Below are positions 3,290 through 64,000 of a DNA stretch of 64,000 nucleotides, piece by piece. The notes below the pieces were generated by a model. The model had not been told where the DNA came from, did no database searches, and saw only the letters and a program-made list of their open reading frames with translations. Origin of the DNA: SAR202 cluster bacterium (lineage in GTDB: Bacteria > Chloroflexota > Dehalococcoidia > Lucifugimonadales > UBA826); NCBI GenBank assembly GCA_008373095.1, contig RQOP01000076.1, positions 734 through 64,733 of the forward strand. The letters are read 5' to 3'. The position numbers and the translations under genes are program-made. Each line of letters begins with the position of its first letter. Position 1 is the stretch's first letter.

Positions 3290-4537
3290 TTAATCCCCTC
3301 CTATTCCCATATTGGCTAATGGAGATGCTGTGGGTTCTGGTCTGTGGTATTTTTTCTTCCCGACAAAATTGGCAAGGATAACGAATGCAATTATAGTCAC
3401 CATCCAGTTAACAGCTGCCATTATAAGCATGTACTCCGTAGTTAATGATCCATCATCTTTTGTGTGGCCTAATTCCACAGCTACCATAAACTCCACTGCG
3501 ACCAAAAAGATATTAAACAAACCCAGTCCAAACAAGATTTTCCAGGCAAAGCCCATTATTTGATCGATTCGTAACCTAGGCCAAGTCGATCTAACCCACA
3601 AAAGAAGGAATATTAAAACAAACATTTTAATAGCGAACCATATCCCACCAGGGAGGAAATCGAATCCTTGAGACCCTCCCAAAAACAGGGTGGTTACTAC
3701 GGCTGCAGTGACTATCGGCGCCATAAATTCTGCTAGAAACAATACTGCGAATTTGATGCCACTATATTCGGTGTTGTAACCAGAGCCTAATTCAGATTCT
3801 GCTTCTATTTGGTCGAATGGGGTACGGCTCATTTCTGCTGTGGATGCTGCCATAAAGACAAAAAATCCCATAGGCATTACCAAAATGAACCATATCGATT
3901 GGCTTTGTACTATTTGAGTCATTGCCAAAGATCCTGATAGAAGAAGAACGCTGGTGATGCCAAGGGCCATTGGTATCTCATAACTTATTAACATTGCCGC
4001 GCCTCGCATGGAACCCAAGATCGCATATTTGTTCCTCGAGCCCCAGCCAGCCATGAAAATGGCTATTGAATTGACGGAAGTAACTCCGACAATAAAAAGT
4101 ATTCCTATGTTTAGATTACTAAGGAACGCTTGGTCACTTGCGTAGGTTCCAAAAGGAATAACGATCATAATCATCAATGTAGGTGCTAATAGTGCTATAG
4201 GAGCTAACGTAAACACGGGTTTATCCGCGGCATCAGGTATCGTATCTTCCTTCATGATCAGTTTTAGTACATCAGCAAAAGGCTGAAGTATTCCGAAGGG
4301 CCCATTTCTGTTAGGACCTCGTCTAACTTGGAATCTTCCGATCATCCTTCGCTCGAACCATGTGTAGAAGGCAGTCGACATGACCATTACATTAATTATT
4401 AGAAATGAAATCGATATTCCTGCTAAAAGACCTGCCATCCACCCAAAAGATGCTCCGAAACCTAATGATTGAATTAGGTTGTCAAATAAATCTCTTAAGG
4501 TATAGAAGCTGATAAAAAAAGCAGGGGTAGGGGTCAT
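3290..4537 (-). CDS. nuoH: NADH-quinone oxidoreductase subunit H
   Basis: 415 aa, polytopic. Motifs ERRMIGRFQVRRGPNRNGPFGILQPFADVLKL and EAESELGSGYNTEYSG are hallmark NuoH/ND1 sequences. Confidence 0.92.
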   Translation of the reverse strand: MTPTPAFFISFYTLRDLFDNLIQSLGFGASFGWMAGLLAGISISFLIINVMVMSTAFYTWFERRMIGRFQVRRGPNRNGPFGILQPFADVLKLIMKEDTIPDAADKPVFTLAPIALLAPTLMIMIVIPFGTYASDQAFLSNLNIGILFIVGVTSVNSIAIFMAGWGSRNKYAILGSMRGAAMLISYEIPMALGITSVLLLSGSLAMTQIVQSQSIWFILVMPMGFFVFMAASTAEMSRTPFDQIEAESELGSGYNTEYSGIKFAVLFLAEFMAPIVTAAVVTTLFLGGSQGFDFLPGGIWFAIKMFVLIFLLLWVRSTWPRLRIDQIMGFAWKILFGLGLFNIFLVAVEFMVAVELGHTKDDGSLTTEYMLIMAAVNWMVTIIAFVILANFVGKKKYHRPEPTASPLANMGIGGD

Positions 4538-24722: not shown

Positions 24723-24771
24723 GGCGGGAGGGTTTGTGTATCAACCCGGCCTTTCCGCGAAGACCTAGATG

Positions 24772-24881
24772 ATGGTACTTAGTGGTTGACCGGACTTGTC
24801 TTATGAAAGACCTACCGTTGCGGGACAGTGTCGGACTTTGACCGACTTCCTCTTTTAAACCCTAAAGGGCACTTGCACCAT
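24772..24881 (-). promoter_or_regulatory. cobalamin (B12) riboswitch aptamer
   Basis: The minus strand reads ATGGT-GCAAGTGCCC..AAAAGAGGAAGTCGGTCAAAGTCCGACACTGTCCCGCAACGGTAGG....GACAAGTCCGGTCAACCACT..ACCAT. This matches the conserved core GGAA-N-GGTGAAAATCC-N-GC-N-G-CCCGC-N-ACTGT, plus a B12-box-like AGTCCGG..CC, closed by a P1 helix ATGGT/ACCAT. It lies directly upstream of a BtuFCD-type operon. Confidence 0.8.
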
Positions 24882-24948
24882 GAATATATTCAATTTTTAA
24901 CCCCCCCATAAAACCATGAGGGGTGTGTTCTTGTCAATTTATCTGAAT

Positions 24949-27900
24949 TTACTCTTCTATAATTCCTTGAGGTTCTTCTAGTCCATTTATATCACTGTCT
25001 AAAATGGAAATATCTGAACCATCCTCCAAAGCTGGTGGAGGTGGGGAGTCAGGCAGTTGTGCGGTGTCAAACATTTTGTCCAGTTCAGCCACTCCCAACT
25101 TCTCCCTTCCCTCTTCTGTAATGTCATAGCGGGCTGGAATTAGTCGTCCGATTATTACATTTTCCTTCAATCCGGACAGAACATCTCTTTTTCCAGTGAC
25201 TGCTGACTCAGTTAAAACTCTGGTTGTTTCTTGGAATGAAGCAGCTGCTAAGAAACTATCCATATGTAGAGAGGCCCGAGTTATTCCCAATAATATGGGT
25301 ACAGCAGTGGCAGGGTCTCCGCCTTCAGCAATTACCTCACCGTTTTTCTCCTCAAATTCCTTTCGATCCATTGGATCTCCAGGTAGGAATTCTGTGTCTC
25401 CTGCCTCATTGACTTGCACTCGCCTTAGCATCTGTCTGATGATGGTTTCAATATGTTTGTCATGTATTGGTACTCCCTGTGATCGGTATACCTTCTGCAC
25501 TTCTTCAATCAAATAGGATTGAACGGCCTCTCTTCCCTGGATTTCCAGAATTTGCTGAGGGTTTTTAGGTCCTGAAGTAATGGCTTGCCCTGCCTCAACT
25601 TCATCACCTTCAGTTATTTCTAGGTGCGATGCTGCCGGAATTGCATACTCTCTTTGTTCTTCGTCTGTCCAGGTAATTGTTATTGTCGAACCATCGATTC
25701 CGACCGTTCCTGAATTACGAGCGTGAATTACCGAATCGTCCTCAGAGTTTTTGGCAGTTGCGATCGGGGTTCCAATTATTACTGTGCTGCCCTTTTTTAC
25801 GGTAGCTTTATAACCGTCTAGGTTATATTCATCCACCAATTCTTCCGAATTTATTATGCGGACGGTACGACCCTCAGGGGTTTCAATTATTTCAGCCTTT
25901 CCTGAAATTTCTGATAATACTGCCGCGCCGCGCGGGGATCTCGCTTCAAATAATTCTTCAACTCTGGGTAGACCACTTGTTATATCTGCTCCAGCTACGC
26001 CACCAGTGTGGAAAGTTCTCATTGTCAATTGGGTACCTGGTTCCCCAATACTTTGAGCAGCTATTATTCCGACTGCATCCCCAATCATTATCGGTTGTAA
26101 ATTAGCCAGAGATAGGCCATAGCACAGTTTACAAAGCCCCTTTTCAGCTTGGCAGGATAGTGGAGATCTTACTTCCACCATATTGACTTTCAATTCTTTT
26201 AAGGTGTCAATATCCTCTTCTTTTAAGGGTTGGTTGGCTTCTATGATTATTTCACCAGTTTCTGGGTTTGCAATTGGCACGGCTGTGTATCTATATTTAA
26301 TCCTGTCATAGAACAAGTCTTTTAATGTGTCGTCGTGATAGTCCTCTACCACAATTCCTTGGGTTGATCCACAGTCTTCTATGGTAACTATCACTTCTTG
26401 AGCAACGTCTATGAGTCTTCTGGTAAGGTATCCACTATCCGCTGTCCTTAATGCTGTGTCAGCTAGCCCTTTTCTTGCTCCATGAGTCGAAATAAAATAT
26501 TCAAGGACAGTTAATCCTTCCCGAAAGTTGGATTTTATTGGCCTATCAATTATTCGGCCTCGTGGATTAGACATAAGGCCTCTCATTCCCGCCATTTGCC
26601 TAATTTGTGCTATGTTTCCTTTAGCTCCTGAGTTGGCCATCATGTAAATTCCTCCGTAGTTCGGGAGGTCTTCGGCTATAACTTGGGTTAGTTTATCGTT
26701 TGCATCAGTCCATATTCTGACCGTAGCATTGTAACGTTCATCTTCCGTTATCAATCCGTCCATGTATTGCTCTTCAAGCTGATTCACTGCTTCCTCAGCT
26801 TCACTCACGATATCTGCCTTCTTCGTCGAAACTTTCACATCGTTAATTGCTATAGAAACACCTGATTTTGACGAGTTCCTGAATCCGAGATTTTTAATAT
26901 CGTCCAAGACTACGGCAGCTTCCTCGTTCCCCAACAGTCTGAAACAGTTACCAGTTATCTCTTTCAGTTTGTTTCTTTCGACTTCTTCGTTTACGTACGG
27001 TAAATCCTTTGGAAGGACATTATTAAATAGAATCCGCCCAACGGTAGTGTCCATTAATTCCCCGGACTCGTTACGGGCATGTATGGGAGCTCTAAGAGCT
27101 ATCGCACCCACTTCGTGGGCCAGTATCGCATCTTCAAAACTGGCAAATCGCTTTCCAATGCCATGTGCGTTTTCATCGATGGAAGTCATGTAATAACACC
27201 CAAGAACCATATCTAAGGAAGGGGTGACGATAGGTTCCCCCGAGCTTGGAGCCAGCATGTTAAAGGTACTCAGCATCAGCTTTCTTGCTTCTAGTACTGC
27301 GATCCTCGATAGAGGGACATGTACTGCCATTTGGTCCCCATCAAAGTCCGCATTGAAGGCTGTACACACCAATGGATGAACCCGTATTGCACTTCCTTCT
27401 ATAAGGACTGGTTCAAAGGCTTGTATTCCGAGCCTATGCAGAGTTGGGGCACGGTTCAGTAATACGGGACGTTCTTTGACGACTTCCCCTAGTATTTCCC
27501 AAACTTCTGATCTATTGCGCTCTGCTAGTCTTTTAGCACTTCTTATATTGTGTGCGTAGCCTTTCAAAACTAGTCGATGCATTACAAATGGTTTAAATAA
27601 TTCTAATGCCATTCGCCTAGGTAAACCACATTCGTTTAACTTCAATTCAGGTCCTGCAATAATTACGGATCTTCCACTATAGTCGACACGTTTCCCCAGC
27701 AAATTTTGTCTGAACCTTCCTTGTTTTCCTCTCAGAAGGTCTGATAAAGATTTGAGTTTATGGTTATGGCTTCCTGCTACAGCCCTGCCTCTCCTTCCAT
27801 TGTCTATCAACGCATCCACCGATTCTTGGAGCATACGCTTTTCGTTTCGTATGATAATCTCAGGTGCCTGTAATTCTATAAGGCGGCTAAGCCTATTATT

Positions 27901-29022
27901 TCGATTTATTACCCTTCTATAGAGATCATTTAGGTCGCTGGTGGCAAACCTACCACCATCCAGTTGAACCATTGGCCTCAAATCTGGCGGTAGAACTGGT
28001 AAATTGGTTAGGATCATCCATTCCGGCCTGTTCGTGCTTTTCCGGAATGATTCAACTACACGTAGTCTTTTGATAGCCTTTTTTCTTCTCTGACCAGAGG
28101 TGGATTGCATTTCCTCTTGTAGCTCATCCCGAAGTTCATCAAGGTCTATATGGTTTTGGAGTACATACAATACTGACTCAGCCCCCATGCCAGCTTGGAA
28201 TACCCCAGGGAAGTTATCTCGGTTGTCTCTGTATTGAGTTTCAGTTAGTAACCTGGTTACTTGAATTTCTTCCAAGGAAGTTATTTGATTTTCAATATTA
28301 TTCAGTATTTCTTCAAACTCATCATTAGTCTCAGATATTAGTTCCTCGATTTTCTCATCGCGTTCTTTTTCTATAGATTCGATTTTGGCGAGGGTTTCTT
28401 TTGTATCTTTCTCATCCTTGGATGCATCATCTTCGGAATCGGAATCTTGTTCTTCCTTTATAACTTGGAGAGGATCTATTTGTGATTGATATTCTTCAAT
28501 TATTGTGTTTTCTATTGATTCTATTTTTGTATCTTTTTCTACTGTTCTTTCTTCTAAAGTTGAGTGGAGTTGCTCTAGTAACTGACTTTTCAATTCCTTA
28601 TCGACATCGGTTACCAGATATTGTGCGAAATAAAGAACTCGGTCCAAGTTCCTTGGGGACAAATCCAATAGCAAGCCCAACCTGCTCGGAGTGCCTTTTG
28701 AAAACCAGATGTGAGCCACTGGGGCCGCCAGCTCTATATGACCCATTCGCTCCCTTCTTACTTTGGAGCGTGCTACCTCGACCCCACATCGATCGCACGT
28801 CACCCCTCGAAACCTTATTTTCTTATATTTTCCACAGTAGCATTCCCAGTCTTTTGTCGGACCGAATATTCTTTCGCAAAATAGGCCATCCTTTTCCGGT
28901 CTCAATGTCCTGTAATTGATCGTCTCCGGTTTTGTTACTTCACCCCAAGACCATCTCTGTACATCATTTGGAGATGCTAGTGAGATTGTTATTGCGTCGA
29001 AATCATTTCCTGGTTGGGCCAT
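24949..29022 (-). CDS. rpoC: DNA-directed RNA polymerase subunit beta'
   Basis: 1357 aa. It carries the N-terminal Zn finger [23 protein letters not shown], the catalytic [12 protein letters not shown] motif, and trigger-loop and bridge-helix regions. Confidence 0.97.
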
Positions 29023-44507: not shown

Positions 44508-44535
44508 TTGACTAGGTTATTCATTGAGGTAAAAT
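44508..44535 (+). promoter_or_regulatory. putative sigma70-type promoter for the CE7-to-ThuA cluster (TTGACT-N16-TAAAAT)
   Basis: Hexamers at 44508-44513 and 44530-44535. An AGGAG RBS lies 7 nt before the ATG at 44587. This is a pattern match only. Confidence 0.35.
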
Positions 44536-44586: not shown

Positions 44587-45507
44587 ATGGGAGTGGACAG
44601 AGATTATAAATGCAGGGTTATTAAACCAGACGATTTTAACGAATTTTGGGGATTGGTCATAGATGAATTAGCTGGAATAGAACTTAATATCGTATGTGAG
44701 GAGGATAAACTCAGATCAGATGAGAATACCACTGTGTATCAAGTTTTCTTTGATAGTTTGGATCGCGTTAGAGTATCTGGCTGGTATTCAGTTCCAAATT
44801 CCCCGAAGGAACGGCTGCCAGCTATCCTTTTGGTCCCTGGGTATCAAAGTGACCCTCCCATTCCAAAGGACTGGTCTGCTAAAGGCTATGCGTGTTTGTC
44901 CATAAATCCAAGAGGAAAAGTCAGAAGTAGAAACCAATTTGATCCGGGGTATCCTGGATTACTTACACATAGAATAGTGGATAGAAATACTTATTCGTAT
45001 CGAGGTTTCTATGCTGATGCCTGGCGTGGTGTGGATTTTCTATTGAGTAGAAAGGAAGTGGATAGCGACAGAATCGGGGTGGCGGGGAGTAGCCAGGGGG
45101 GAGGCTTAACAATAACAACTTCGGCTATGAGGAAAGAGATCAAAGCTGCTTCTGCAGGAGCGCCGTATTTGTGTGGGTTCATGGACGCTATTGAATTAAC
45201 GGATACTTATCCCTACCAGGAAATTAATGACTATCTCCGTATAAATCCGGATAGTTCAGAGCAAGTGGAGAATACTCTGGCCTATTTTGACGGGATATCG
45301 TTCGCTGATCAAATAAGCTGTCCGATCATAATCAACATAGGGTTACAAGATAACGTTTGCCCTCCTGAAACAGGATATTCACTTTTTGAGACTATAGGTA
45401 GTAACGATAAGAAGTTATTTGAATATGATGGTCATGGCCATGAGGCAGGAAGATATGTGCATTCCGCAATAATAGATCAATTTTTTGACGAGCATTTAAA
45501 AAGGTAG
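44587..45507 (+). CDS. acetyl esterase, CE7 family (acetylxylan esterase / cephalosporin-C deacetylase-like)
   Basis: AXE1-type fold with nucleophile elbow GVAGSSQGGGLT, the Asp region IGLQDNVCPP and C-terminal DGHGHE. Confidence 0.82.
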   Translation: MGVDRDYKCRVIKPDDFNEFWGLVIDELAGIELNIVCEEDKLRSDENTTVYQVFFDSLDRVRVSGWYSVPNSPKERLPAILLVPGYQSDPPIPKDWSAKGYACLSINPRGKVRSRNQFDPGYPGLLTHRIVDRNTYSYRGFYADAWRGVDFLLSRKEVDSDRIGVAGSSQGGGLTITTSAMRKEIKAASAGAPYLCGFMDAIELTDTYPYQEINDYLRINPDSSEQVENTLAYFDGISFADQISCPIIINIGLQDNVCPPETGYSLFETIGSNDKKLFEYDGHGHEAGRYVHSAIIDQFFDEHLKR

Positions 45508-45514
45508 AGCAGAA

Positions 45515-46432
45515 ATGATCGATAACAGACCGATAGACTTCGGACAATTTTGGTATTCACTTGGGAAAGAGTTAAGTGAGATTCCTGTGGCTGCTGAGAC
45601 TGAAATACTCCAAATGCGTTCAACTGACTTCGCAGATCTCTACGGAGTTCATATGTCTAGCATAGGACCGTACAAAATTTATGGATATCTCAGCGTTCCC
45701 AAAGGGGACGGTCCATTCCCTGTCATTTATTACGTCCCCAAAAATGCTAGCGTCTTGGAAATAATCCCACAAGGAACATCTAATCAAATAAGAAGTAGAT
45801 ACATCACTTTTTCTGTTGCTTGCAGAGGAATGAGAACGTCTGACAGCCCTTATTCTGCTATGTATCCTGGTCAACTGACAGATGGGATTGAATCAATGTC
45901 TACATACGTTTACAGAGGTATAGTAGCGGACACACTCAGAGGATTAGATTTTTTGTTGACATTCCCTCACATCAATAAATCGTCGATTGTCGCTTGGGGA
46001 AATGATAATGCCTTGTTGGCGGGAGCTTTGCATGGAGCAGTCACTCATATAGTTTCGACCCCATCTTTTCTATATGACTCAATCCAACAAGCATCGCAAA
46101 CTTCCTCATACCCTTTGGAAGAATTTAACGATTATTTTAGACTGAATCCAGAAAAAAGAGACGAAGTTTCTAAAATTCTGGCCTATTACGACCTGAAATT
46201 TCACGCATCTGCCATAACAGCTGAGACTCTTATCATGGCTGACCATGAAGGGGGCCTTCATGATAGTAAAACCCTTTCTGAATTTAAAGAAAATATGAGT
46301 GGCCAAGTTACATTGCACACTTCGGAACGATCAAGTTACAGAGACGGGATGTTTGCTGAAGAATGGGTGACAGAAAAATTGTTTGGTCATGATGTAGCGC
46401 CAATTGTGCCCAATCATTGGAAATCTGAGTAA
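45515..46432 (+). CDS. CE7/AXE1-like paralogue lacking the GxSQGG serine elbow
   Basis: Same length and N-terminal architecture as the upstream CE7 gene (F...W..L..EL..I.......). By-eye alignment places IVAWGNDNALLAG opposite GVAGSSQGGGLT, so Asp sits at the nucleophile position. Confidence 0.6.
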   Translation: MIDNRPIDFGQFWYSLGKELSEIPVAAETEILQMRSTDFADLYGVHMSSIGPYKIYGYLSVPKGDGPFPVIYYVPKNASVLEIIPQGTSNQIRSRYITFSVACRGMRTSDSPYSAMYPGQLTDGIESMSTYVYRGIVADTLRGLDFLLTFPHINKSSIVAWGNDNALLAGALHGAVTHIVSTPSFLYDSIQQASQTSSYPLEEFNDYFRLNPEKRDEVSKILAYYDLKFHASAITAETLIMADHEGGLHDSKTLSEFKENMSGQVTLHTSERSSYRDGMFAEEWVTEKLFGHDVAPIVPNHWKSE

Positions 46433-46449
46433 ACTATTAGGAGTTCTCT

Positions 46450-47394
46450 GTGAATAATGGTGATAAGCACATACCAAGTGGTATTTCTGTTCCCCAATCT
46501 TTTATCGATGGACCCGTTGATATGGGGCTTATCAAAGAATTTGTTTCAGTCGCAGAAGATCTTAGATACAAAGGTCTTTGGGTACAAGAAAAAATTATTG
46601 GAGAAATCTCTTCATTAGAGCCTATTAATCTTCTCAGCTATATATCGTCATTAACATCAACTGCGGATCTTGGAGTTGCTGTGATAATAGGATCCACAAG
46701 AAATCCTATCTTACTAGCCAAAGAACTGGCTTCTTTAGATCAGATGTCTGGCGGAAGGTTAATACTGGGCTATGCATTAGGTGGCAATCCCAGAAACTAT
46801 TCTCTAATGGATGGCCCGGATTCTAAAAGAGTGCGCCATTTTATTGAATCGTTGAATGTTATAAAAAGCCTGTGGACCGAAGAATCCCCTAACATAGAAG
46901 GTGACTTCTGGAACTTTGACGGCCTGCCAATTTATCCAAAGCCATTGCAAAAACCACATCCACCAATTTGGTTTGGTGGTCGGCATCCGGATGCTTTAAA
47001 ACGAGCTGTAAAATACGGGGACGGATGGATGGGAGCTGGATCTACAACTTCTGATCAATTTGTAGAACATATGGGAATAATTAAAAAGGAATTAAGTTAT
47101 CTCAATAAATCTGAGAATGATTTTAAAATATCCAAAAGGGTTTATGTTGCAATAGATTCAGACAAGTCTAGAGCTGAAGAAAAGTTGAGGACTTGGTTTA
47201 AAGCGAATTATGGCAACCCAGATCTTGGGTCACAGGTGTCGATATGGGGAACTAGCGATGAGATCATTCCTGAACTGCAACGTTTGATTGACTCTGGTGC
47301 CGGTATGCTAATGTTCAATCCAGTTTTTGACCATATGTTCCATTTGGAAACGATAGCAGAAGAGGTGATTCCTTTTTTGACCGCTGGCAACTAG
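46450..47394 (+). CDS. LLM-class flavin/F420-dependent oxidoreductase (luciferase-like)
   Basis: GRLILGYALGG.......G.......R...ESL.VIK.LWTEE....EGDFWNF.G....PKP.QKPHPPIWFGG is the luciferase-like TIM-barrel pattern. GTG start preceded by AGGAG. Confidence 0.8.
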   Translation: MNNGDKHIPSGISVPQSFIDGPVDMGLIKEFVSVAEDLRYKGLWVQEKIIGEISSLEPINLLSYISSLTSTADLGVAVIIGSTRNPILLAKELASLDQMSGGRLILGYALGGNPRNYSLMDGPDSKRVRHFIESLNVIKSLWTEESPNIEGDFWNFDGLPIYPKPLQKPHPPIWFGGRHPDALKRAVKYGDGWMGAGSTTSDQFVEHMGIIKKELSYLNKSENDFKISKRVYVAIDSDKSRAEEKLRTWFKANYGNPDLGSQVSIWGTSDEIIPELQRLIDSGAGMLMFNPVFDHMFHLETIAEEVIPFLTAGN

Positions 47395-47438
47395 TCGTTT
47401 ATCTTATGCAACCACAGATATTATGCATAGCCTTATAG

Positions 47439-48308
47439 GTGCCAAAGAGATGGAGGGATATTTTGACCACTGAAAATTTCGTTAATTCACAAATACTTGT
47501 TGATACTGAATGGCTAAATGATCATATAGATGATCCAAGTATCAGGATAGTGGATTGTGATATGTTCGATTCATATTCACGTGCACATATAAGAGGTGCT
47601 GTTGGGATAAAGGTTCATCACTATATTAAGCATCCTCTTTACCCTGATGATTCCAAGGCATATCCATGGGTAGCAGAGCCTGAAGTTGTAAAAGAACTTT
47701 TTGAGAGTATGGGTATAGGAGATAACACAACAGTGGTGACTTATGACAGCGGTGGAAGCCTTTGGGCTAGCAGGTTTTGGTGGGTATTGAACTACTATGG
47801 TCACACCAATGCCAAAGTGCTAGACGGTGGATGGAAAAAATGGTTTGACGAGGGGAGGCCGGTATCGATAGACCCACCTGTACCAATAGAAGTGACGTTT
47901 ACTCCGTCTTCTGATGATACGTTGATATGCACTTTGGATCAGGCTGTTTCCAAAATTGACGATTCAGACGTTGTTTTCCTAGATGTGAGATCAGATGGGG
48001 AATGGGATGGGACAAATTCTAGAGGTAATTCTAGGTCCGGTCGGGTTCCTGGGTCTGTACACTTGGAATGGTTGAACTTCATAACAGATGACAAGTATCA
48101 CACTATAAAAAGTCCGAGTGAGCTAAGGAATATGTTAGAAGCCGTCGGTGTTACTCCTGAAAAGGAAGTAATAACTTATTGACAGGGTGGAATCCGTGCG
48201 GCGCACGGAGTGTTTGTACTTACCCTTTTAGGGTACGAGAATAAAAGAAATTATGACGGCTCGATGGGTGAGTGGGCTAATCGCACCGATACGCCTTTAA
48301 CAATGTAA
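47439..48308 (+). CDS. two-domain rhodanese sulfurtransferase (SseA/TST-like) with in-frame TGA (48180-48182) at the catalytic Cys position; candidate selenoprotein, alternatively a pseudogene
   Basis: The track ORF stops at 48182 after ...KEVITY. The same frame continues QGGIRAAHGVFVLTLLGYENKRNYDGSMGEWANRTDTPLTM to TAA at 48306-48308. The junction Y-[TGA]-QGGIRAA reproduces the rhodanese active-site loop Y-C-x-x-G-x-R-(S/A). The YDGSxxEW tail is also conserved. The total of 289 codons fits the family. Confidence 0.7.
48193..48209 (+). promoter_or_regulatory. SECIS-like hairpin downstream of the in-frame TGA
   Basis: TCCGTGC-GGC-GCACGGA forms a 7-bp perfect stem with a G-rich 3-nt loop. Its first base is the 11th nt after the TGA. 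Confidence 0.4.
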
Positions 48309-48354
48309 TTCTTTAGGCTTAATAGAACCTCTAGAATTCAAAAATGGAGATACC

Positions 48355-49488
48355 ATGGGTAGATCGATTCACCATCCTGTTGGACTGATACATAATTCCC
48401 CTTCCAACACTTTCAACGGGTATACCTTGTTCAACACCAATGGCGGCAACCATGCCACCATGATTGATAATCTGGGCCGGGTTGTCCACAGATGGAACTA
48501 CGATGGCGGGATAATATATTCCTACCTTCTAGAAAATGGGAATTTATTGGCTAGAACTAAACCTCCTGAAGATGTAGACATTGTCAAAGGTCTAGGAGGG
48601 TCCTCATCCTCGCTTATAGAGATGGATTGGGATTCAGAAATTGTATGGGAATACAAAGATCCTATGCTGCATCACGATTACACTAGGTTACCCAACGGGA
48701 ATACAGGAGCACTTTTATTTAAAGAACTGGATGAGGACATCTCTCGACAGGTAAAAGGAGGTCATCCCAGAGAGGATGACCCTAAAACTATATTAGGTGA
48801 TGTTATAAGGGAGATTGGCACAGGTGGAGAGACTGTAAACGAATGGGAAATATACAGTGAATTGGACTTTGATGAAGACGTAATTTGTCCTTTAGAGCAT
48901 CGCCGCGAATGGACGCATGCTAATAGCTTAAATTTAATGCCCAATGGTGATTTTTTAGTAAGCTTCAGAAACATTAGCACGGTGGGAATAATAAGTAGAG
49001 AAACTGGGGAGTTTGTCTGGAAATGGGGCCCTGGAAACGTGTTTCATCAACATCATCCCACAGTTCTTGAAAATGGAAACATATTGATTTTTGATAACGG
49101 TAGCCATTCTCAAGGTATGGATAGGTCCAGAGTCATTGAAGTAAATCCTGTAACTAATGAAATTGAATGGGAGTACACTGAAACTCCAGCACTCGCGTTC
49201 TATAGTTTTCATATTAGTAGTGCCGAAAGGTTAGACAACGGGAATACTCTTATTTGTGAAGGAGCTTTCGGTAGGATCTTTGAAGTTACGAAAAATGGGA
49301 GGGTTGTCTGGGAGTACATAAACCCTTTCTATGCTCCCGATTTGAGATCAGGTGACCCCACCAATATGGTGTTTAGGGCCCATAGATATTCTCCTGAACA
49401 TCCTTCTTTAGAAGGAAGAGATTTGAATCCGGATATTTATAAAAATATTAATAGGCTATATGGTGGGGGAGAAATTGGTGATTCTTGA
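48355..49488 (+). CDS. arylsulfotransferase (ASST)-like beta-propeller protein
   Basis: Repeated NGN-containing blades (LLENGNLLA, RLPNGNTGALL, THANSLNLMPNGDFLVSFRNISTVGIISRETGEFVWKWG, QHHPTVLENGNILIFDNGSH, RLDNGNTLI) resemble the ASST family. There is no signal peptide. Confidence 0.6.
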   Translation: MGRSIHHPVGLIHNSPSNTFNGYTLFNTNGGNHATMIDNLGRVVHRWNYDGGIIYSYLLENGNLLARTKPPEDVDIVKGLGGSSSSLIEMDWDSEIVWEYKDPMLHHDYTRLPNGNTGALLFKELDEDISRQVKGGHPREDDPKTILGDVIREIGTGGETVNEWEIYSELDFDEDVICPLEHRREWTHANSLNLMPNGDFLVSFRNISTVGIISRETGEFVWKWGPGNVFHQHHPTVLENGNILIFDNGSHSQGMDRSRVIEVNPVTNEIEWEYTETPALAFYSFHISSAERLDNGNTLICEGAFGRIFEVTKNGRVVWEYINPFYAPDLRSGDPTNMVFRAHRYSPEHPSLEGRDLNPDIYKNINRLYGGGEIGDS

Positions 49489-49542
49489 AATGGTTTAGTG
49501 ACGGCTTAGTTTAAAAAGTAAAGTAGGTGAAAGGAGGATTTC

Positions 49543-50220
49543 ATGAATTTGTTATTAATGAGTGGAGGTAGACATCCATATGAGGAATCCACCCCGGTTT
49601 TAAAAGAGTTTTTAGAGGGGGCTGGTCATACTGTTACGGTCAGGGAAGATGCAGATGCTTTAACTGATGGGACTTTAGGCAGGTCGGATGCTTTGATTTT
49701 TAACACTCTGCGAGAGGGGGATATGGCCCTAGATCCTGACCAACAGAACGCTTTAAAGGGATATATCAGCTCCGGCAATGGTTTTGTCTGTATTCACATA
49801 TCAGGTTGCGTTCCCGATACCTGGAATGACTATGGAGATATCACCGGGGGGGGATGGGTGATGGGTCAGAGTTTCCACCCTCCATACAGCAATTTTTCTG
49901 TTGATGTTTCTAACAGCGAACACCCATGTGCAACAGAGCTTGCTTCATTCAGCACTGATGATGAGCTGTATATGAATATAGATTACAGAGAAGGGAATGA
50001 TGTATTCGTCACTGCTGATTTTGAGGGAGGGGTTTACGGAAAAAATAGAGCAGGCGCTGAGGATATGGAAATGGCAGGAGGAACTTTTCCACTGGCTTGG
50101 ACTAGGTCCTACGGTACTGGCAAAGTTTTTGTAACCCTTCTGGGGCATGACGGAAAAAGTCATCAGAGCAAAGGGTTTCAGGAATTAGTATTAAACGGAG
50201 TAGACTGGGTTAATAGCTAA
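49543..50220 (+). CDS. ThuA-domain protein (class I glutamine-amidotransferase-like fold)
   Basis: GG.HPYEE....L.EFL...GH.V.......AL.......DALIFNT......L...Q..AL..YI..GNGFVCIH......W..Y..I.GG.W....SFHPPY..F.V.V....HP......F...DELY...PLAWTR.YG.GKVFVTLLGHD matches the ThuA pattern. Confidence 0.75.
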   Translation: MNLLLMSGGRHPYEESTPVLKEFLEGAGHTVTVREDADALTDGTLGRSDALIFNTLREGDMALDPDQQNALKGYISSGNGFVCIHISGCVPDTWNDYGDITGGGWVMGQSFHPPYSNFSVDVSNSEHPCATELASFSTDDELYMNIDYREGNDVFVTADFEGGVYGKNRAGAEDMEMAGGTFPLAWTRSYGTGKVFVTLLGHDGKSHQSKGFQELVLNGVDWVNS

Positions 50221-50227
50221 ACTTTTG

Positions 50228-50404
50228 TCACGGGTTGAGGTGGTCTATGGCTGCCTCAGCCCAGACTCTTAGATTGTTGTCCAAATCTTCTCCGCAATGT
50301 GGACATTCGTAGTCTCCTGTACTCCATCTCATGCCACATCCAGGACACGGCTGTATATTGTCTAGAAAATTTATCAGAAACTGGATTTTCTCTTCCTTGT
50401 TCAA
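50228..50404 (-). CDS. small zinc-ribbon protein (58 aa; below the ORF-track length cut-off)
   Basis: My translation gives (M)NKEEKIQFLINFLDNIQPCPGCGMRWSTGDYECPHCGEDLDNNLRVWAEAAIDHLNP with two CxxC pairs. The TTG start overlaps the kdgK stop and has GGAG 8 nt upstream. Confidence 0.4.
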   Translation of the reverse strand: MNKEEKIQFLINFLDNIQPCPGCGMRWSTGDYECPHCGEDLDNNLRVWAEAAIDHLNP

Positions 50405-51345
50405 CCCATTTGCTCCATGTATTTTTTGTGTAAACCGTATATGACTTCGCCTTTAGCCATACCACTTAGAGCCCCACGGCCAGTGATATTCATGCCTGCT
50501 GAGATATTTGCGAGGCACGCTGCCTCATAATGGCTCATTCCATTCATGATTCCATGAAGGAAGGCCCCATTAAAGGCGTCACCTGCACCTGTGGTATCTA
50601 CGACTTTCTCCCTTTGGTAAGGGTCGAGGTCAATTGTATTGCCATCATGGTATATAGAAGACCCTAAATGCCCCTTTTTCACAACGACAATTTTGATTCC
50701 TCTGGCAGTAGATTCACTTATTATTTTATTGGTGTTATTGGTTCCAAAGAGGGCCTCGGAGTCCGCTGGCAGACTAGGCATGAAAATGTCGACGAATGGT
50801 AGTAATTCTTCCATAGCTTCACGAGCTGTTTCAAAGCTCCATAACTGATGCCTGTAATTAGGATCATATGAAACAGTTATGTTTTTCTCATTTGCTCTTT
50901 TGGCAGCTTCTAGAACAGTTTTCCTTGAGGAATCAGAGATGGCCTGGGCTATCCCACTACAATGCAATATTTTTGCCGACGATAAATAATTTTCATCAAT
51001 ATGGTCAGGCGTTAGGTAGGTTGGGGCACTACCAGAGCGATAATAAACGAATTCTCTGTCTCCATCGTCTTTTGTTGCCACAAAATGCGCTGCGTTAAAA
51101 CCTGGAATAGTTTTGATTTGAGATATATCTATTCCTTCATCCGTAAAGGAGTTTCTCAGGTATGTCTGAAACGGGTCGTCCCCTAGTAGAGTTATGTATC
51201 CGGTTGAGGTACCTAGTCGTCCAGCTGCTACTAATATATTAAAACTATCGCCTGCCAAAGATCGCTGGAAAACTCTGGAGGATTCCATTGGTTCTTCGGA
51301 AAACAATTCAATCATGCATTCTCCGATACTAATTAAGTCAGGCAT
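50401..51345 (-). CDS. kdgK: 2-dehydro-3-deoxygluconokinase-like PfkB sugar kinase
   Basis: N-terminal ISIGECMIEL and GDSFN, plus C-terminal VVDTTGAGDAFNGAFLHG (the PfkB signature 2). Confidence 0.82.
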   Translation of the reverse strand: MPDLISIGECMIELFSEEPMESSRVFQRSLAGDSFNILVAAGRLGTSTGYITLLGDDPFQTYLRNSFTDEGIDISQIKTIPGFNAAHFVATKDDGDREFVYYRSGSAPTYLTPDHIDENYLSSAKILHCSGIAQAISDSSRKTVLEAAKRANEKNITVSYDPNYRHQLWSFETAREAMEELLPFVDIFMPSLPADSEALFGTNNTNKIISESTARGIKIVVVKKGHLGSSIYHDGNTIDLDPYQREKVVDTTGAGDAFNGAFLHGIMNGMSHYEAACLANISAGMNITGRGALSGMAKGEVIYGLHKKYMEQMG

Positions 51346-51349
51346 TCTT

Positions 51350-52414
51350 TTAGAAATTAGCCCTTACTTTCTCTGGAGAACAGGCTTTCATAACGTCCAA
51401 AGTTCCATCAACTGTTCCAGGTCTAGAAGAAACAACTCTGACAATAGTATGGTCAAGTCCTTTAGAAATCCGAGCAAATTCAGCAGCAGCATTTTCGGCA
51501 TTTCCGAAATAACCTACAGTCCTTAATAAATCTACAGGGAATGCATCAGCCACTTCATCTCTGGAGGCACCCTTCTTCCGCATTTCGTCGAGTTCTGCAA
51601 GCTCTGAGGTGAACCCCATCCTTTCGAAATGAGCCCTGTAACCAAAGGATCGTTCCTTTTCAGTTGGCACAGTCGCCCCCAATGCATATTGCATGGTCGC
51701 TTTGGCTAGTGCGATTCGAGCTCGGTCTTCGTCTTCATCTACGCATATTCTTATATATTCCGAGACTTTTATTTCAGAAGGATCTCTACCAACTTTTTCG
51801 GCGCCTTCAGCGATTCTGTCCCTGCTCCAGGCTACTTGTTCTGGAGCACACCAATTTAGTGCAGCTCCATCGGCAAGTTCACCGGCTAGTTGTAGCATTT
51901 TGGGACCCAGTGCTCCTAGATAAACTGGTGTTTTGGGAAGAGGATTGATGGACATTCTTCCACCTTTCATGATTCCTACATCGCCTTCGTAATCTGTTTT
52001 ACCTTCGTTGACCAGTTCCTTTATTATCGATATGTAGTCTCGCATTAAGGAGAGTGCAGACATTTTTGGTAGACCTATCGTCCGCCGAACATCTGGCCTG
52101 TATGCTCCTCCCGCTCCTATGCCCATAATGAATTTTCCTCCAGTCATATGGCTGACTGTTCCTCCTGTCATTGCAAATGCCATTGGCGTTCGCCACATGA
52201 CTGGGGAGACAGCTATGCCTGTTTCCAATCCTCCATCCACTATTTCATTGGATGCTGCCCATCTCATTAAGCAAACCTGGTAGGAGTCCATTTGACCTGG
52301 TACCTCTGGAGTCCAAATACTTTGATAACCAAGCCTGGCCGCTTCTCTAGACATTTCTTTTTGTTGTTCTATGTCCAATCTTAGAGTTGGATCGAGACCG
52401 ATACCGATATCCAT
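51350..52414 (-). CDS. LLM-class F420/flavin-dependent oxidoreductase
   Basis: GIGL......L......A..A..LGY.S.WT.E, GGKFIMGIGAGG and YLGALGPKMLQLAGELADGA are typical of luciferase-like F420-dependent enzymes. Confidence 0.82.
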   Translation of the reverse strand: MDIGIGLDPTLRLDIEQQKEMSREAARLGYQSIWTPEVPGQMDSYQVCLMRWAASNEIVDGGLETGIAVSPVMWRTPMAFAMTGGTVSHMTGGKFIMGIGAGGAYRPDVRRTIGLPKMSALSLMRDYISIIKELVNEGKTDYEGDVGIMKGGRMSINPLPKTPVYLGALGPKMLQLAGELADGAALNWCAPEQVAWSRDRIAEGAEKVGRDPSEIKVSEYIRICVDEDEDRARIALAKATMQYALGATVPTEKERSFGYRAHFERMGFTSELAELDEMRKKGASRDEVADAFPVDLLRTVGYFGNAENAAAEFARISKGLDHTIVRVVSSRPGTVDGTLDVMKACSPEKVRANF

Positions 52415-52451
52415 GCAATTACCTCATATTGTTTCTGGTTTGGGAATTAAT

Positions 52452-54041
52452 TTAATTTTTTTCTATCAAGGCCATTTCTGTAGAAAACCATATGGCCATT
52501 GATCCACCTCTGTCATCATAACCATATTCTGCTTTTCTATAGATGTAGTCACTTCTTTTTTGTTGGAATCCTGTTCCTGAACATACATCAATCAAATCTC
52601 CGTTGTCATTGATCCTCTTTTTTGATGCGGCCCAAACTTTTTCAAGAATGGGTAAATATGATTCACTCAGCCATCCTTTTCTTATTCCGCGAGCTAACAC
52701 ATATCCAATCATGCAGGTTACGGACAATTCTTGGTAGGTTCCAGGTAAATCTATTAGTTGAGGCCATGTTCCATTTGGTAATTGATGACTAATCATTCCA
52801 TCCAAATGTTTTATGTGGATATCCAATACTTGATTTCGAAGAGGGTATTCGATTGGCATGTAATTAAGGGCCTCAGAAAAAGCTAAGGCGGCAAATCCGT
52901 TTCCTCTTCCCCAAAAATATGGAGTAGTCCTGTTGTGCCAGAAAAGTCCATTGGTTTGTTGAACTCCAGCTTCAAGTAAAAAATCTACATATCGATCAAC
53001 ATAGGTGGAGTCGTTGGTGACCTTAAAGGCTCTGCCCATCATTGCAGCGATGAAGAACATATCCTCACAGCCAAATTCAGGATGGCATGGGTTTGGAGAA
53101 ATACCTTTTGGGACATTTTCGTAGGTGTTTGCTGCCTTTAAAAGCAGATCCTTCCATGTTTTGTCCTTTGAGGCCCTAAACAGGTCTTCGGCCCAACACA
53201 TTGCCGCAATATTCGGCCCTGAATTATTGTTATTTTCGAAATTAGAGTTTTCATTTAGGAAATTAACAAGGTTTGATATTCCCTCAACAGGGTCAGGATA
53301 ATTTGGATCTATTTCTTTTAGTCTAAGTCTGCCGCTTATAGAGACACCTTGTACGTAATTGATTGGCTCATCCAGCTTGTATCCATATACCTTCCCGAGG
53401 TGGTTACTGACTTCTAGTGCACTTCTTTCAACAAGGCTCTGCTGTTCCTTTGCGGCCTTTGATATGACAGGGTCTGATTCAATTATTTTCCTGATTAAAT
53501 TAATGAAAATTTCATTTATGTTGTCGTTGGGCGCAGTAATCCTAATTCCAGGGATTGGCCCAGGGGTTGGACCTAAACCAGAAGCTAGGGCCCCTAAAAG
53601 AGAATTTGTCTCATGGGATATTGAGTCCACAAAATCGTATTTAATTGTTCCACTTGGCCCGATTGATTCTATATAGACCTTATCTTCATTGGTTTCAGTC
53701 AACTCTATTACTAGATCTGGGGCATCCACTGTAATCCATCTCCATAGGTAGAGTTCTTCAGGGTTCTTTAACTCATGAAAGGATTTGGACTGAGGAGGAA
53801 ACTCATAAATTTGATCCGACATGTTCAGTTGGGTGTCAGATGCTATGAAACCAATTTTGTCTGATAACTCATCGATCCCTTTCATTGCGTCTGAAAAAAA
53901 TGTTTCATTAGCCCGGACACCTGATAACCCTCCAATTATTGCAAATCGGTGGATTTTCTCTGAGGAATGATACAAAGAGTTGGTAAATCCCTTGATCGGG
54001 TTTTCAGATTTATCGATACCTACGTTGTACTGGATATTCAA
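52452..54041 (-). CDS. GH105/GH88-like unsaturated uronyl hydrolase with a roughly 200-aa N-terminal domain of unknown function
   Basis: The C-terminal (alpha/alpha)6-type region contains GLFWHNRTTPYFWGRGNGFAALAFSEAL and later IDVCSGTGF, typical of the YteR/UGL families. The N-terminal third has no motif I recognise. TTG start. Confidence 0.65.
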   Translation of the reverse strand: MNIQYNVGIDKSENPIKGFTNSLYHSSEKIHRFAIIGGLSGVRANETFFSDAMKGIDELSDKIGFIASDTQLNMSDQIYEFPPQSKSFHELKNPEELYLWRWITVDAPDLVIELTETNEDKVYIESIGPSGTIKYDFVDSISHETNSLLGALASGLGPTPGPIPGIRITAPNDNINEIFINLIRKIIESDPVISKAAKEQQSLVERSALEVSNHLGKVYGYKLDEPINYVQGVSISGRLRLKEIDPNYPDPVEGISNLVNFLNENSNFENNNNSGPNIAAMCWAEDLFRASKDKTWKDLLLKAANTYENVPKGISPNPCHPEFGCEDMFFIAAMMGRAFKVTNDSTYVDRYVDFLLEAGVQQTNGLFWHNRTTPYFWGRGNGFAALAFSEALNYMPIEYPLRNQVLDIHIKHLDGMISHQLPNGTWPQLIDLPGTYQELSVTCMIGYVLARGIRKGWLSESYLPILEKVWAASKKRINDNGDLIDVCSGTGFQQKRSDYIYRKAEYGYDDRGGSMAIWFSTEMALIEKN

Positions 54042-55872: not shown

Positions 55873-55947
55873 CGGGGTGTGGCGCAGCGGTAGCGCGCCT
55901 GTTTTGGGAACAGGAGGCCCTCGGTTCGATCCCGAGCACCCCGACCA
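55873..55947 (+). tRNA. tRNA-Pro (anticodon UGG), CCA encoded
   Basis: Manual fold: acceptor CGGGGTG/CACCCCG, D arm GCGC-AGCGGTA-GCGC, anticodon arm CCTGT-TTTGGGA-ACAGG (positions 34-36 are TGG), T arm CTCGG-TTCGATC-CCGAG, discriminator A, then CCA. Confidence 0.92.

Positions 55948-63326: not shown

Positions 63327-64000
<674 letters not shown>

Follow-up and report, generated by a model that had tools for sequence, protein, structure and literature searches.

The 64,000-nt stretch of DNA analysed here (the window; positions 734-64,733 of the forward strand of contig RQOP01000076.1, assembly GCA_008373095.1) comes from a SAR202 cluster bacterium, classified by GTDB as Bacteria; Chloroflexota; Dehalococcoidia; Lucifugimonadales; UBA826. 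It carries a gene for a tandem-domain rhodanese of the thiosulfate sulfurtransferase (TST) type that is interrupted by an in-frame TGA at 48180-48182, and comparison with related sequences makes it very probable that this TGA is the catalytic codon, decoded as selenocysteine (Sec). The UGA lies on the column of the catalytic Cys, it is followed by a conserved, translated frame, and a hairpin directly past it is held constant where the codon is TGA. The gene has the following features, all on the plus strand.

47439, plus strand: alternative in-frame GTG start
47452..47457, plus strand: presumed Shine-Dalgarno-like GGAGGG, five bases before the TTG (read from the sequence)
47463..48308, plus strand: full coding region of the predicted Sec-rhodanese, 281 codons plus TAA (translation; orthologue lengths; end-to-end PDB alignment)
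47505..47846, plus strand: N-terminal rhodanese domain, catalytically inactive, with Asp (..VVTYDSGG..) at the Cys position (PF00581; 1UAR alignment)
47946..48287, plus strand: C-terminal catalytic rhodanese domain, approximate bounds, spanning the UGA (second PF00581 stretch; PDB alignments through residue 287)
48180..48182, plus strand: in-frame UGA, predicted Sec codon, in the loop U-Q-G-G-I-R-A and the context UAU-UGA-C (alignment; 74 of 80 loci)
48183..48305, plus strand: 41 codons past the UGA, encoding the remaining active-site loop, a helix and the YDGSxxEW tail (codon-position entropy)
48193..48209, plus strand: hairpin UCCGUGC-GGC-GCACGGA resembling a Sec insertion sequence (SECIS), with a 7-bp stem, a G-containing 3-nt loop and a 10-nt spacer from the UGA (folding; codon entropy; pairing)
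48306..48308, plus strand: true stop TAA (translation)

The open reading frame (ORF) that opens with GTG at 47439 reaches the TGA after ...PEKEVITY, and the same frame then encodes QGGIRAAHGVFVLTLLGYENKRNYDGSMGEWANRTDTPLTM, 41 codons, before it ends at the TAA. A preliminary description of this DNA had pointed out both the halt and the open frame behind it, and both could be read directly from the sequence. Of the extent proposed there, 47439-48308, the end was correct whereas the start was probably not. The TTG at 47463 is the more likely start because GGAGGG precedes it and because the resulting product of 281 residues (239 + U + 41) has the length of the orthologues, which measure 239 aa up to the TGA. 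The full-length product would have a mass of about 31 kDa. Its predicted tryptic peptide spanning the UGA is EVITYUQGGIR, and its C-terminal part would give peptides such as NYDGSMGEWANR.

For the Pfam and PDB searches, Cys was substituted at the TGA in the 289-aa translation from 47439. Pfam then recognised two PF00581 rhodanese stretches (E = 2e-36), the better of which, residues 23-136, is the N-terminal domain. With phmmer, residues 14-287 aligned end to end with tandem rhodaneses of the PDB, among them 1UAR (1.3e-43), 3HWI (3.3e-36), bovine rhodanese and Azotobacter RhdA. The TGA column coincided with the catalytic Cys, ITY[C]QGGIRAAHG of the window standing against VVYCRIAERSSH in 1UAR and IAYCRIGERSSH in 3HWI, and the protein tail NYDGSMGEW aligned to NYDGSWTEW. 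These alignments bear out the proposals that Y-[TGA]-QGGIRAA is the rhodanese active-site loop, in which the TGA replaces the persulfide-forming Cys, and that YDGSxxEW is the conserved family tail; the comparison of the TGA column with PF00581 homologues, which the preliminary description had asked for, is thereby supplied. The sequence alignment with the PDB entries fixes both the predicted rhodanese fold and the position of the active site.

The window protein also has the layout of a tandem rhodanese, i.e. two rhodanese domains of which the N-terminal one is inactive, with Asp in ..TYDSGG.. at the loop position. It shares its fold, its domain order, the inactive N-terminal domain, a six-residue loop with Arg at +5 and the YDGSxxEW tail with the Cys-type tandem rhodaneses of Thermus thermophilus (1UAR), Mycobacterium (3HWI/3AAX), cattle (1RHD) and Azotobacter (RhdA, 1E0C). 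The loop, U-Q-G-G-I-R-A, follows the TST-like pattern C-x-x-G-x-R with basic residues and is invariant in the Sec orthologues. In contrast to the Cys-type proteins, the catalytic residue is encoded by UGA instead of TGY, and the loop reads QGGIRA where they have RIAERS, RIGERS or RKGVTA. With regard to NCBIfam, no equivalog cut-off was reached (the best model, NF008557 for 3-mercaptopyruvate sulfurtransferase, gave 112 bits against a cut-off of 250), and the collection holds no dedicated model for a Sec-rhodanese. Single-domain COG0607 forms, NF041203 ('rhodanese_LYCAU', CxU) and TsoB likewise combine a rhodanese domain with Sec in or adjoining the active site, but they differ from the window protein in architecture and motif; membership of NF041203 was rejected at 35 bits against a cut-off of 115.

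A protein search returned 1,899 relatives at E <= 1e-20, and lengths and ends were examined for the best 120. Nearly all of these (117) were 235-247 aa long, covered about 83% of the query and ended in ..(T/P)Y, at identities down to 59%, while one, P0118, was a full-length Cys form of 281 aa (..VVTYCQAGIRAAHG..). At the DNA level, a scan of a one-genome-per-species collection (such scans giving the best 80-150 matches to the query) yielded 80 loci. They come from metagenome-assembled genomes (MAGs), single-cell genomes and complete long-read chromosomes of SAR202/Dehalococcoidia, from eight 'Candidatus Binatia' chromosomes and from one Tectomicrobia MAG. The catalytic codon was TGA in 74 of the 80, with protein identities to the window of 45-97%, and TGC or TGT in the remaining six (L066, L072, L073 and L075-L077). 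The TGA allele was also present on complete chromosomes, e.g. OZ252229.1, OY729417.1, OZ241888.1 and OY764155.1, and OX638375.1 of Binatia. Orthologues with a conserved TGA and Sec/Cys pairs, which the preliminary description had suggested looking for, are thus found, with the downstream frame intact. Among 67 distinct Sec-type sequences, which also underlie the entropy values below, the codon before the UGA was TAT in 66 and the next codon CAG in 62, and the base following the UGA was C in all. UGA-C is a weak termination context.

The hairpin at 48193-48209 was recovered independently by a general hairpin scan. Its codons, +4 to +9 (ATC CGT GCG GCG CAC GGA), showed a codon entropy of only 0-0.44 bits, compared with 1.5-2.4 bits for neighbouring Gly, Val and Leu codons, which have four to six synonyms and encode equally conserved residues, and third-position entropy was 0.19 inside the hairpin against 1.2-1.6 elsewhere. 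Synonymous sites, whose conservation past the TGA had been named as a check, are thus frozen over the 18 nt that form the hairpin. Pairing was preserved in 97% of cells, and fell to 16-71% when the 3' partners were shifted by 1-3 columns. Two compensatory changes were seen: G-C to U-A in L068/L078 (CCGUU..AACGG) and C-G to A-U in L012. The former alters codons +6 and +8, turning IRAAHG into IRSANG (A to S, H to N), so that in L068/L078 the fold of the RNA seems to determine residues of the active-site region. The soil-type Dehalococcoidia Sec forms L069/L074 lack the common hairpin and have instead a 7-bp one, CAGCGCA-GUC-UGCGCUG, placed six bases further downstream (about 19-35 nt past the TGA). 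The long-established Cys forms (the six loci listed above) have no equivalent hairpin. The scan had flagged the element as an intrinsic terminator, a candidate we rejected; the T-rich tail is not conserved in the orthologues, and coding conservation extends past the hairpin.

As a hairpin directly past the UGA with G in a small loop, the element is a predicted SelB target of the kind expected in a bacterial selenoprotein gene. It has in common with the E. coli fdhF-type SECIS that it lies within the coding sequence directly past the UGA, with a short spacer and a small G-containing loop. It differs from that type in its short 7-bp stem, its 3-nt GGC loop and the lack of a bulged U.

One 90%-identity protein cluster holds both 281-aa and 234-aa members, and among four metagenome contigs, L081-L083 (TGA, 3703-3705) differ from L084 (TGC, 983-985) by one coding change, the third base of the catalytic codon. 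This holds for the coding sequence that could be aligned, from 63 nt ahead of the catalytic codon as far as the stop. A single further mismatch, in L081, falls immediately after the stop, and the Cys allele, L084, retains the hairpin in full. On this sequence evidence, the four contigs represent either a Sec/Cys polymorphism at the population level or a very recent conversion. Moreover, such exchanges have probably happened more than once, because L066 (Cys, no hairpin) resembles the Sec forms L069/L074 in the conserved C-terminal segment. A UGA aligned with Cys in homologues, the Sec/Cys pair that is usual for selenoproteins, is seen in three settings: against the PDB proteins, between the 74 and the six loci, and in the TGA/TGC allele pair.

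The column of the catalytic Cys, the 74 TGA loci and the conserved hairpin all support the interpretation, already put forward in the preliminary description, of the TGA as a Sec codon at the catalytic Cys position. In the mechanism that we propose, SelB carrying Sec-tRNA(Sec) would bind the hairpin while the ribosome is positioned on the UGA, and Sec would be inserted in the weak-termination context to give the 281-residue enzyme. If this product then behaves as Cys rhodaneses do, a sulfane sulfur (e.g. of thiosulfate) would be attacked by the selenolate of the U-Q-G-G-I-R-A loop, giving an enzyme Se-S intermediate from which the sulfur would pass to an acceptor. Selenium being the better nucleophile and leaving group, both half-reactions may be faster, and the site may be protected against irreversible oxidation. 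A role in selenium trafficking, with the protein as a perselenide carrier, is possible but less economical.

Another way of reading the hairpin is that it directs the UGA to be decoded as Cys or another amino acid, either by a Cys-charged tRNA-Sec-like tRNA or by near-cognate read-through when selenium is scarce. The inserted amino acid is not distinguishable by sequence analysis, and the natural TGA/TGC polymorphism in otherwise identical DNA shows functional tolerance of Cys at the site. Cys-recoding tRNAs have been reported in some bacteria. Against this, conservation of a dedicated hairpin in three phyla is what marks SelB-dependent insertion of Sec, and TGC would be the simpler way to encode Cys, which is what the six Cys lineages do, with loss of the hairpin. 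SelA and SelD, which are needed for Sec synthesis, are moreover listed in SAR202 bins: Table S4 of Slaby et al. 2017 gives COG1921 (SelA), COG3276 (SelB) and COG0709 (SelD) in all five sponge-associated SAR202 bins (bin16, 22, 87, 90 and 127). Altogether we hold the insertion of Cys or another residue to be quite improbable.

Several points nevertheless weigh against our explanation of the gene. Neither selA, selB, selD nor tRNA-Sec was found in the window and the 80 loci (81 sequences, 0.99 Mb, about 12 kb per genome) with aragorn and with phmmer on six-frame ORFs, the queries being E. coli SelA, SelB and SelD. This negative is uninformative and carries little weight, because only about 12 kb of each genome was covered. 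It should be underlined that the attribution of the Sec trait to the source organism draws on inference together with a single COG table from sponge-associated relatives, the literature on SAR202 in connection with selenoproteins, rhodanese or sulfotransferases having yielded nothing beyond that table. The covariation support is thin, with two compensatory pairs and 39 of 500 shuffles reaching the observed covariation score, and it is limited because the hairpin barely varies. The stability of the window hairpin taken alone is unexceptional (z = -1.5). Finally, homologues found elsewhere of the arylsulfotransferase-like (ASST-like) gene that follows the rhodanese in the window have no adjoining rhodanese.

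The region past the TGA bears on a further alternative, namely that the UGA is a genuine stop, with a product of 239-247 aa that lacks the catalytic loop and represents either a pseudogene or a non-catalytic rhodanese-like protein. Public annotation follows this reading: GenBank and IMG label the gene as a 239-243-aa 'hypothetical protein' or as a truncated thiosulfate/3-mercaptopyruvate sulfurtransferase (e.g. MBS57959.1, MBH27520.1, GIT16496.1, MCH2307916.1 and MBR97913.1), and TGA is a normal stop in this genome. On the other hand, the frame was open and conserved for 40-46 codons past the catalytic codon in every locus, including 74 of 74 with TGA, and it supplies precisely those parts, active-site loop and family tail, that the truncated product lacks. 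Past the TGA (codons +10 to +38), entropy averaged 0.42/0.31/1.43 at codon positions 1/2/3, compared with 0.84/0.50/1.63 in the 25 codons before it. Since variation concentrates at the third position, which is a coding signature, the region past the UGA is by this measure translated and under purifying selection, and under tighter constraint than the stretch ahead of the TGA. Such a pattern, kept over protein identities of 45-97%, would not be expected of a decaying pseudogene. The claim that the 41 downstream codons show no decay therefore holds, the conserved coding frame expected past a Sec codon is present, and a genuine stop has very little probability. Two loci are irregular in this region: in L065 (Tectomicrobia) the reading frame has to be shifted some 25 codons ahead of the TGA, probably because of an indel in the assembly, and L064 has an unusual insertion, as well as Ns, in its C-terminal segment.

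The window has a G+C content of 41.6%, and its 49 long ORFs end with TAA (27), TAG (13) or TGA (9). Eight of the nine that end with TGA are other genes, including the ASST-like gene and PfkB/kdgK, both of which the preliminary description had correctly cited as having TGA for a real stop. The genetic code of the window is standard, without reassignment of TGA, because TGA terminates these eight ORFs. Sixty sites in the window have an in-frame TGA with an open frame on both sides, and only that of the rhodanese is gene-like, the others being antisense or short noise. A second, genuine TGA terminates the rhodanese gene itself in many orthologues. It is extremely unlikely that faulty sequencing or assembly turned a TGC/TGT into this TGA, or that TGA is reassigned here to Trp or Gly. 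TGA is one base from TGC and one population carries both alleles, but 74 genomes assembled independently of one another share the codon, among them complete chromosomes from long reads and genomes of single cells; TGA acts as a stop in the eight ORFs and in the orthologues just mentioned; and homologues have Cys at the aligned position rather than Trp or Gly. As far as sequences can tell, sequencing error (the alternative that the preliminary description had proposed to exclude), pseudogene and truncated product are excluded for practical purposes.

The finding of a Sec-rhodanese involves no new kind of biology. The caution in the preliminary description that Sec/Cys rhodaneses had been predicted in marine surveys was justified, the family having been listed under COG2897/cd01449 since the Sargasso Sea (2005) and Global Ocean Sampling (GOS, 2008) surveys. 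Zhang, Fomenko & Gladyshev 2005 (PMC1088965) included a 'rhodanese-related sulfurtransferase' (COG2897) among the 15 selenoprotein families newly predicted from Sargasso Sea data, with three sequences and a SECIS drawn for AACY01016424. In the GOS data, Zhang & Gladyshev 2008 (PMC2398784) counted eight Sec sequences for cd01449 and one for COG2897, against thousands of Cys homologues. A 2022 review keeps the SseA-type Sec-rhodanese as a predicted family, and a 2026 review (PMC13188914) lists 'rhodanese-like form 4, UxxG' as a predicted selenoprotein family; the published representative sequences are AACY01016424, MQG53192.1 and MCY3690685.1. The published family (COG2897/SseA; cd01449) and the window gene have in common the two-domain SseA/TST type, Sec at the catalytic Cys and UxxG (U-Q-G-G in the window), as well as a SECIS with G in a small loop, a marine metagenomic origin and many Cys homologues. 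The window gene thus matches this known, uncharacterised Sec family, the likeness being one of description, i.e. of domain class, motif and habitat. The published entries are few metagenome fragments without lineage, whereas the window gene has one; SAR202 or Chloroflexi are not mentioned in the survey and review papers on Sec-rhodanese.

What is added here is the lineage, the breadth of the family (the 74 loci, in three phyla), SECIS evidence at the nucleotide level, the Sec/Cys polymorphism at one base, the association with the ASST-like gene and a systematic error in database annotation. SAR202/Dehalococcoidia, Binatia and Tectomicrobia are thereby named as carriers of a selenoprotein family for which there had been only metagenome fragments of anonymous origin. 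If the recoding is genuine, as we consider very probable, the current annotation is wrong, and the databases lack the catalytic C-terminal part of an enzyme that is widespread in the sea. Few bacterial lineages of the dark ocean are as abundant as SAR202, and a selenium requirement would thus be implied in a dominant deep-ocean group. The near-invariant hairpin, the residue changes apparently forced by pairing and the TGA/TGC polymorphism together offer a system in which to study the preference for Sec over Cys at a sulfur-transfer active site.

The surroundings of the rhodanese gene are as follows.

44508-44535: promoter-like site
44587-50220, plus strand: same-strand run with gaps of 7-68 nt, comprising two AXE1 esterases, an LLM oxidoreductase, the Sec-rhodanese, the ASST-like gene and a ThuA-like gene
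48355..49488, plus strand: ASST-like gene, 46 nt downstream of the rhodanese (Pfam PF05935/PF14269)
50401-54041, minus strand: PfkB (KDG-kinase-like), a second LLM gene and GH88, downstream

The ASST-like gene is the only neighbour kept with the rhodanese across genomes, and the scan found no terminator-like site between the two in the window. It lies downstream on the same strand in 50 of the 74 Sec loci (L001-L046 and others), and in 47 of these 50 pairs its frame begins no more than about 300 nt from the UGA. The pairs include sponge-type Dehalococcoidia loci without any other window neighbour gene nearby, while no Cys locus has the gene, and neither do the Sec loci of Binatia and Tectomicrobia. 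One MAG isolate (c259e03a...) has two contigs, L030 and L067, each with a Sec-rhodanese/ASST-like pair; their C-terminal protein sequences are identical, with few synonymous differences near the UGA, and they represent either a true duplication or assembly redundancy. Ten His and two Cys are invariant in the ASST-like protein, which matched no NCBIfam model and has only a distant relative in the PDB (9KF4, "Sulfotransferase", 1.4e-8). We also considered whether the ASST-like gene is always paired with a rhodanese, which it is not; no rhodanese lies within 2.5 kb of its homologues from other phyla or of its paralogues in Dehalococcoidia (56-59% identity). The pairing is accordingly a real SAR202 feature and not an obligate module.

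The SAR202 Sec-rhodanese probably works with the downstream ASST-like protein in some organosulfur transaction, a suggestion that is speculative. A more far-reaching scenario would be that the two form a dedicated selenium-requiring two-gene module for sulfur or organosulfur in an undescribed pathway, that the gene and its SECIS moved between Chloroflexota, Binatota and Tectomicrobia, and that populations switch between Sec and Cys by one base according to selenium supply; as a whole this is doubtful, although conceivable. As a separate observation, the locus at 44587-54041 looks suited to the use of acetylated or sulfated uronic-acid glycans.

Outside this locus, the window contains the following features.

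24763-24891, minus strand: cobalamin riboswitch, RF00174, 37 bits (Rfam)
24949-29022, minus strand: very large ORF, 1357 aa
29068-32958, minus strand: very large ORF, 1296 aa
40048-44433, minus strand: very large ORF, 1461 aa, DUF2298/PMT_2 membrane glycosyltransferase-like
55873-55947, plus strand: tRNA-Pro(TGG) (Rfam)
63327-64000, plus strand: bacterial 16S rRNA gene, 5' 690 positions, running off the window end (Rfam)

The Rfam scan of the window matched only the 16S rRNA, the tRNA-Pro and the cobalamin riboswitch, with no SECIS and no tRNA-Sec. The window is bacterial, with the 16S rRNA gene beginning at 63327, and this fragment could serve to position the organism inside SAR202. The cobalamin riboswitch lies immediately upstream of a run of minus-strand ORFs that starts at 24744. 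In many pelagic SAR202 loci, the 1461-aa DUF2298/PMT_2 gene is found in synteny with the rhodanese cluster.

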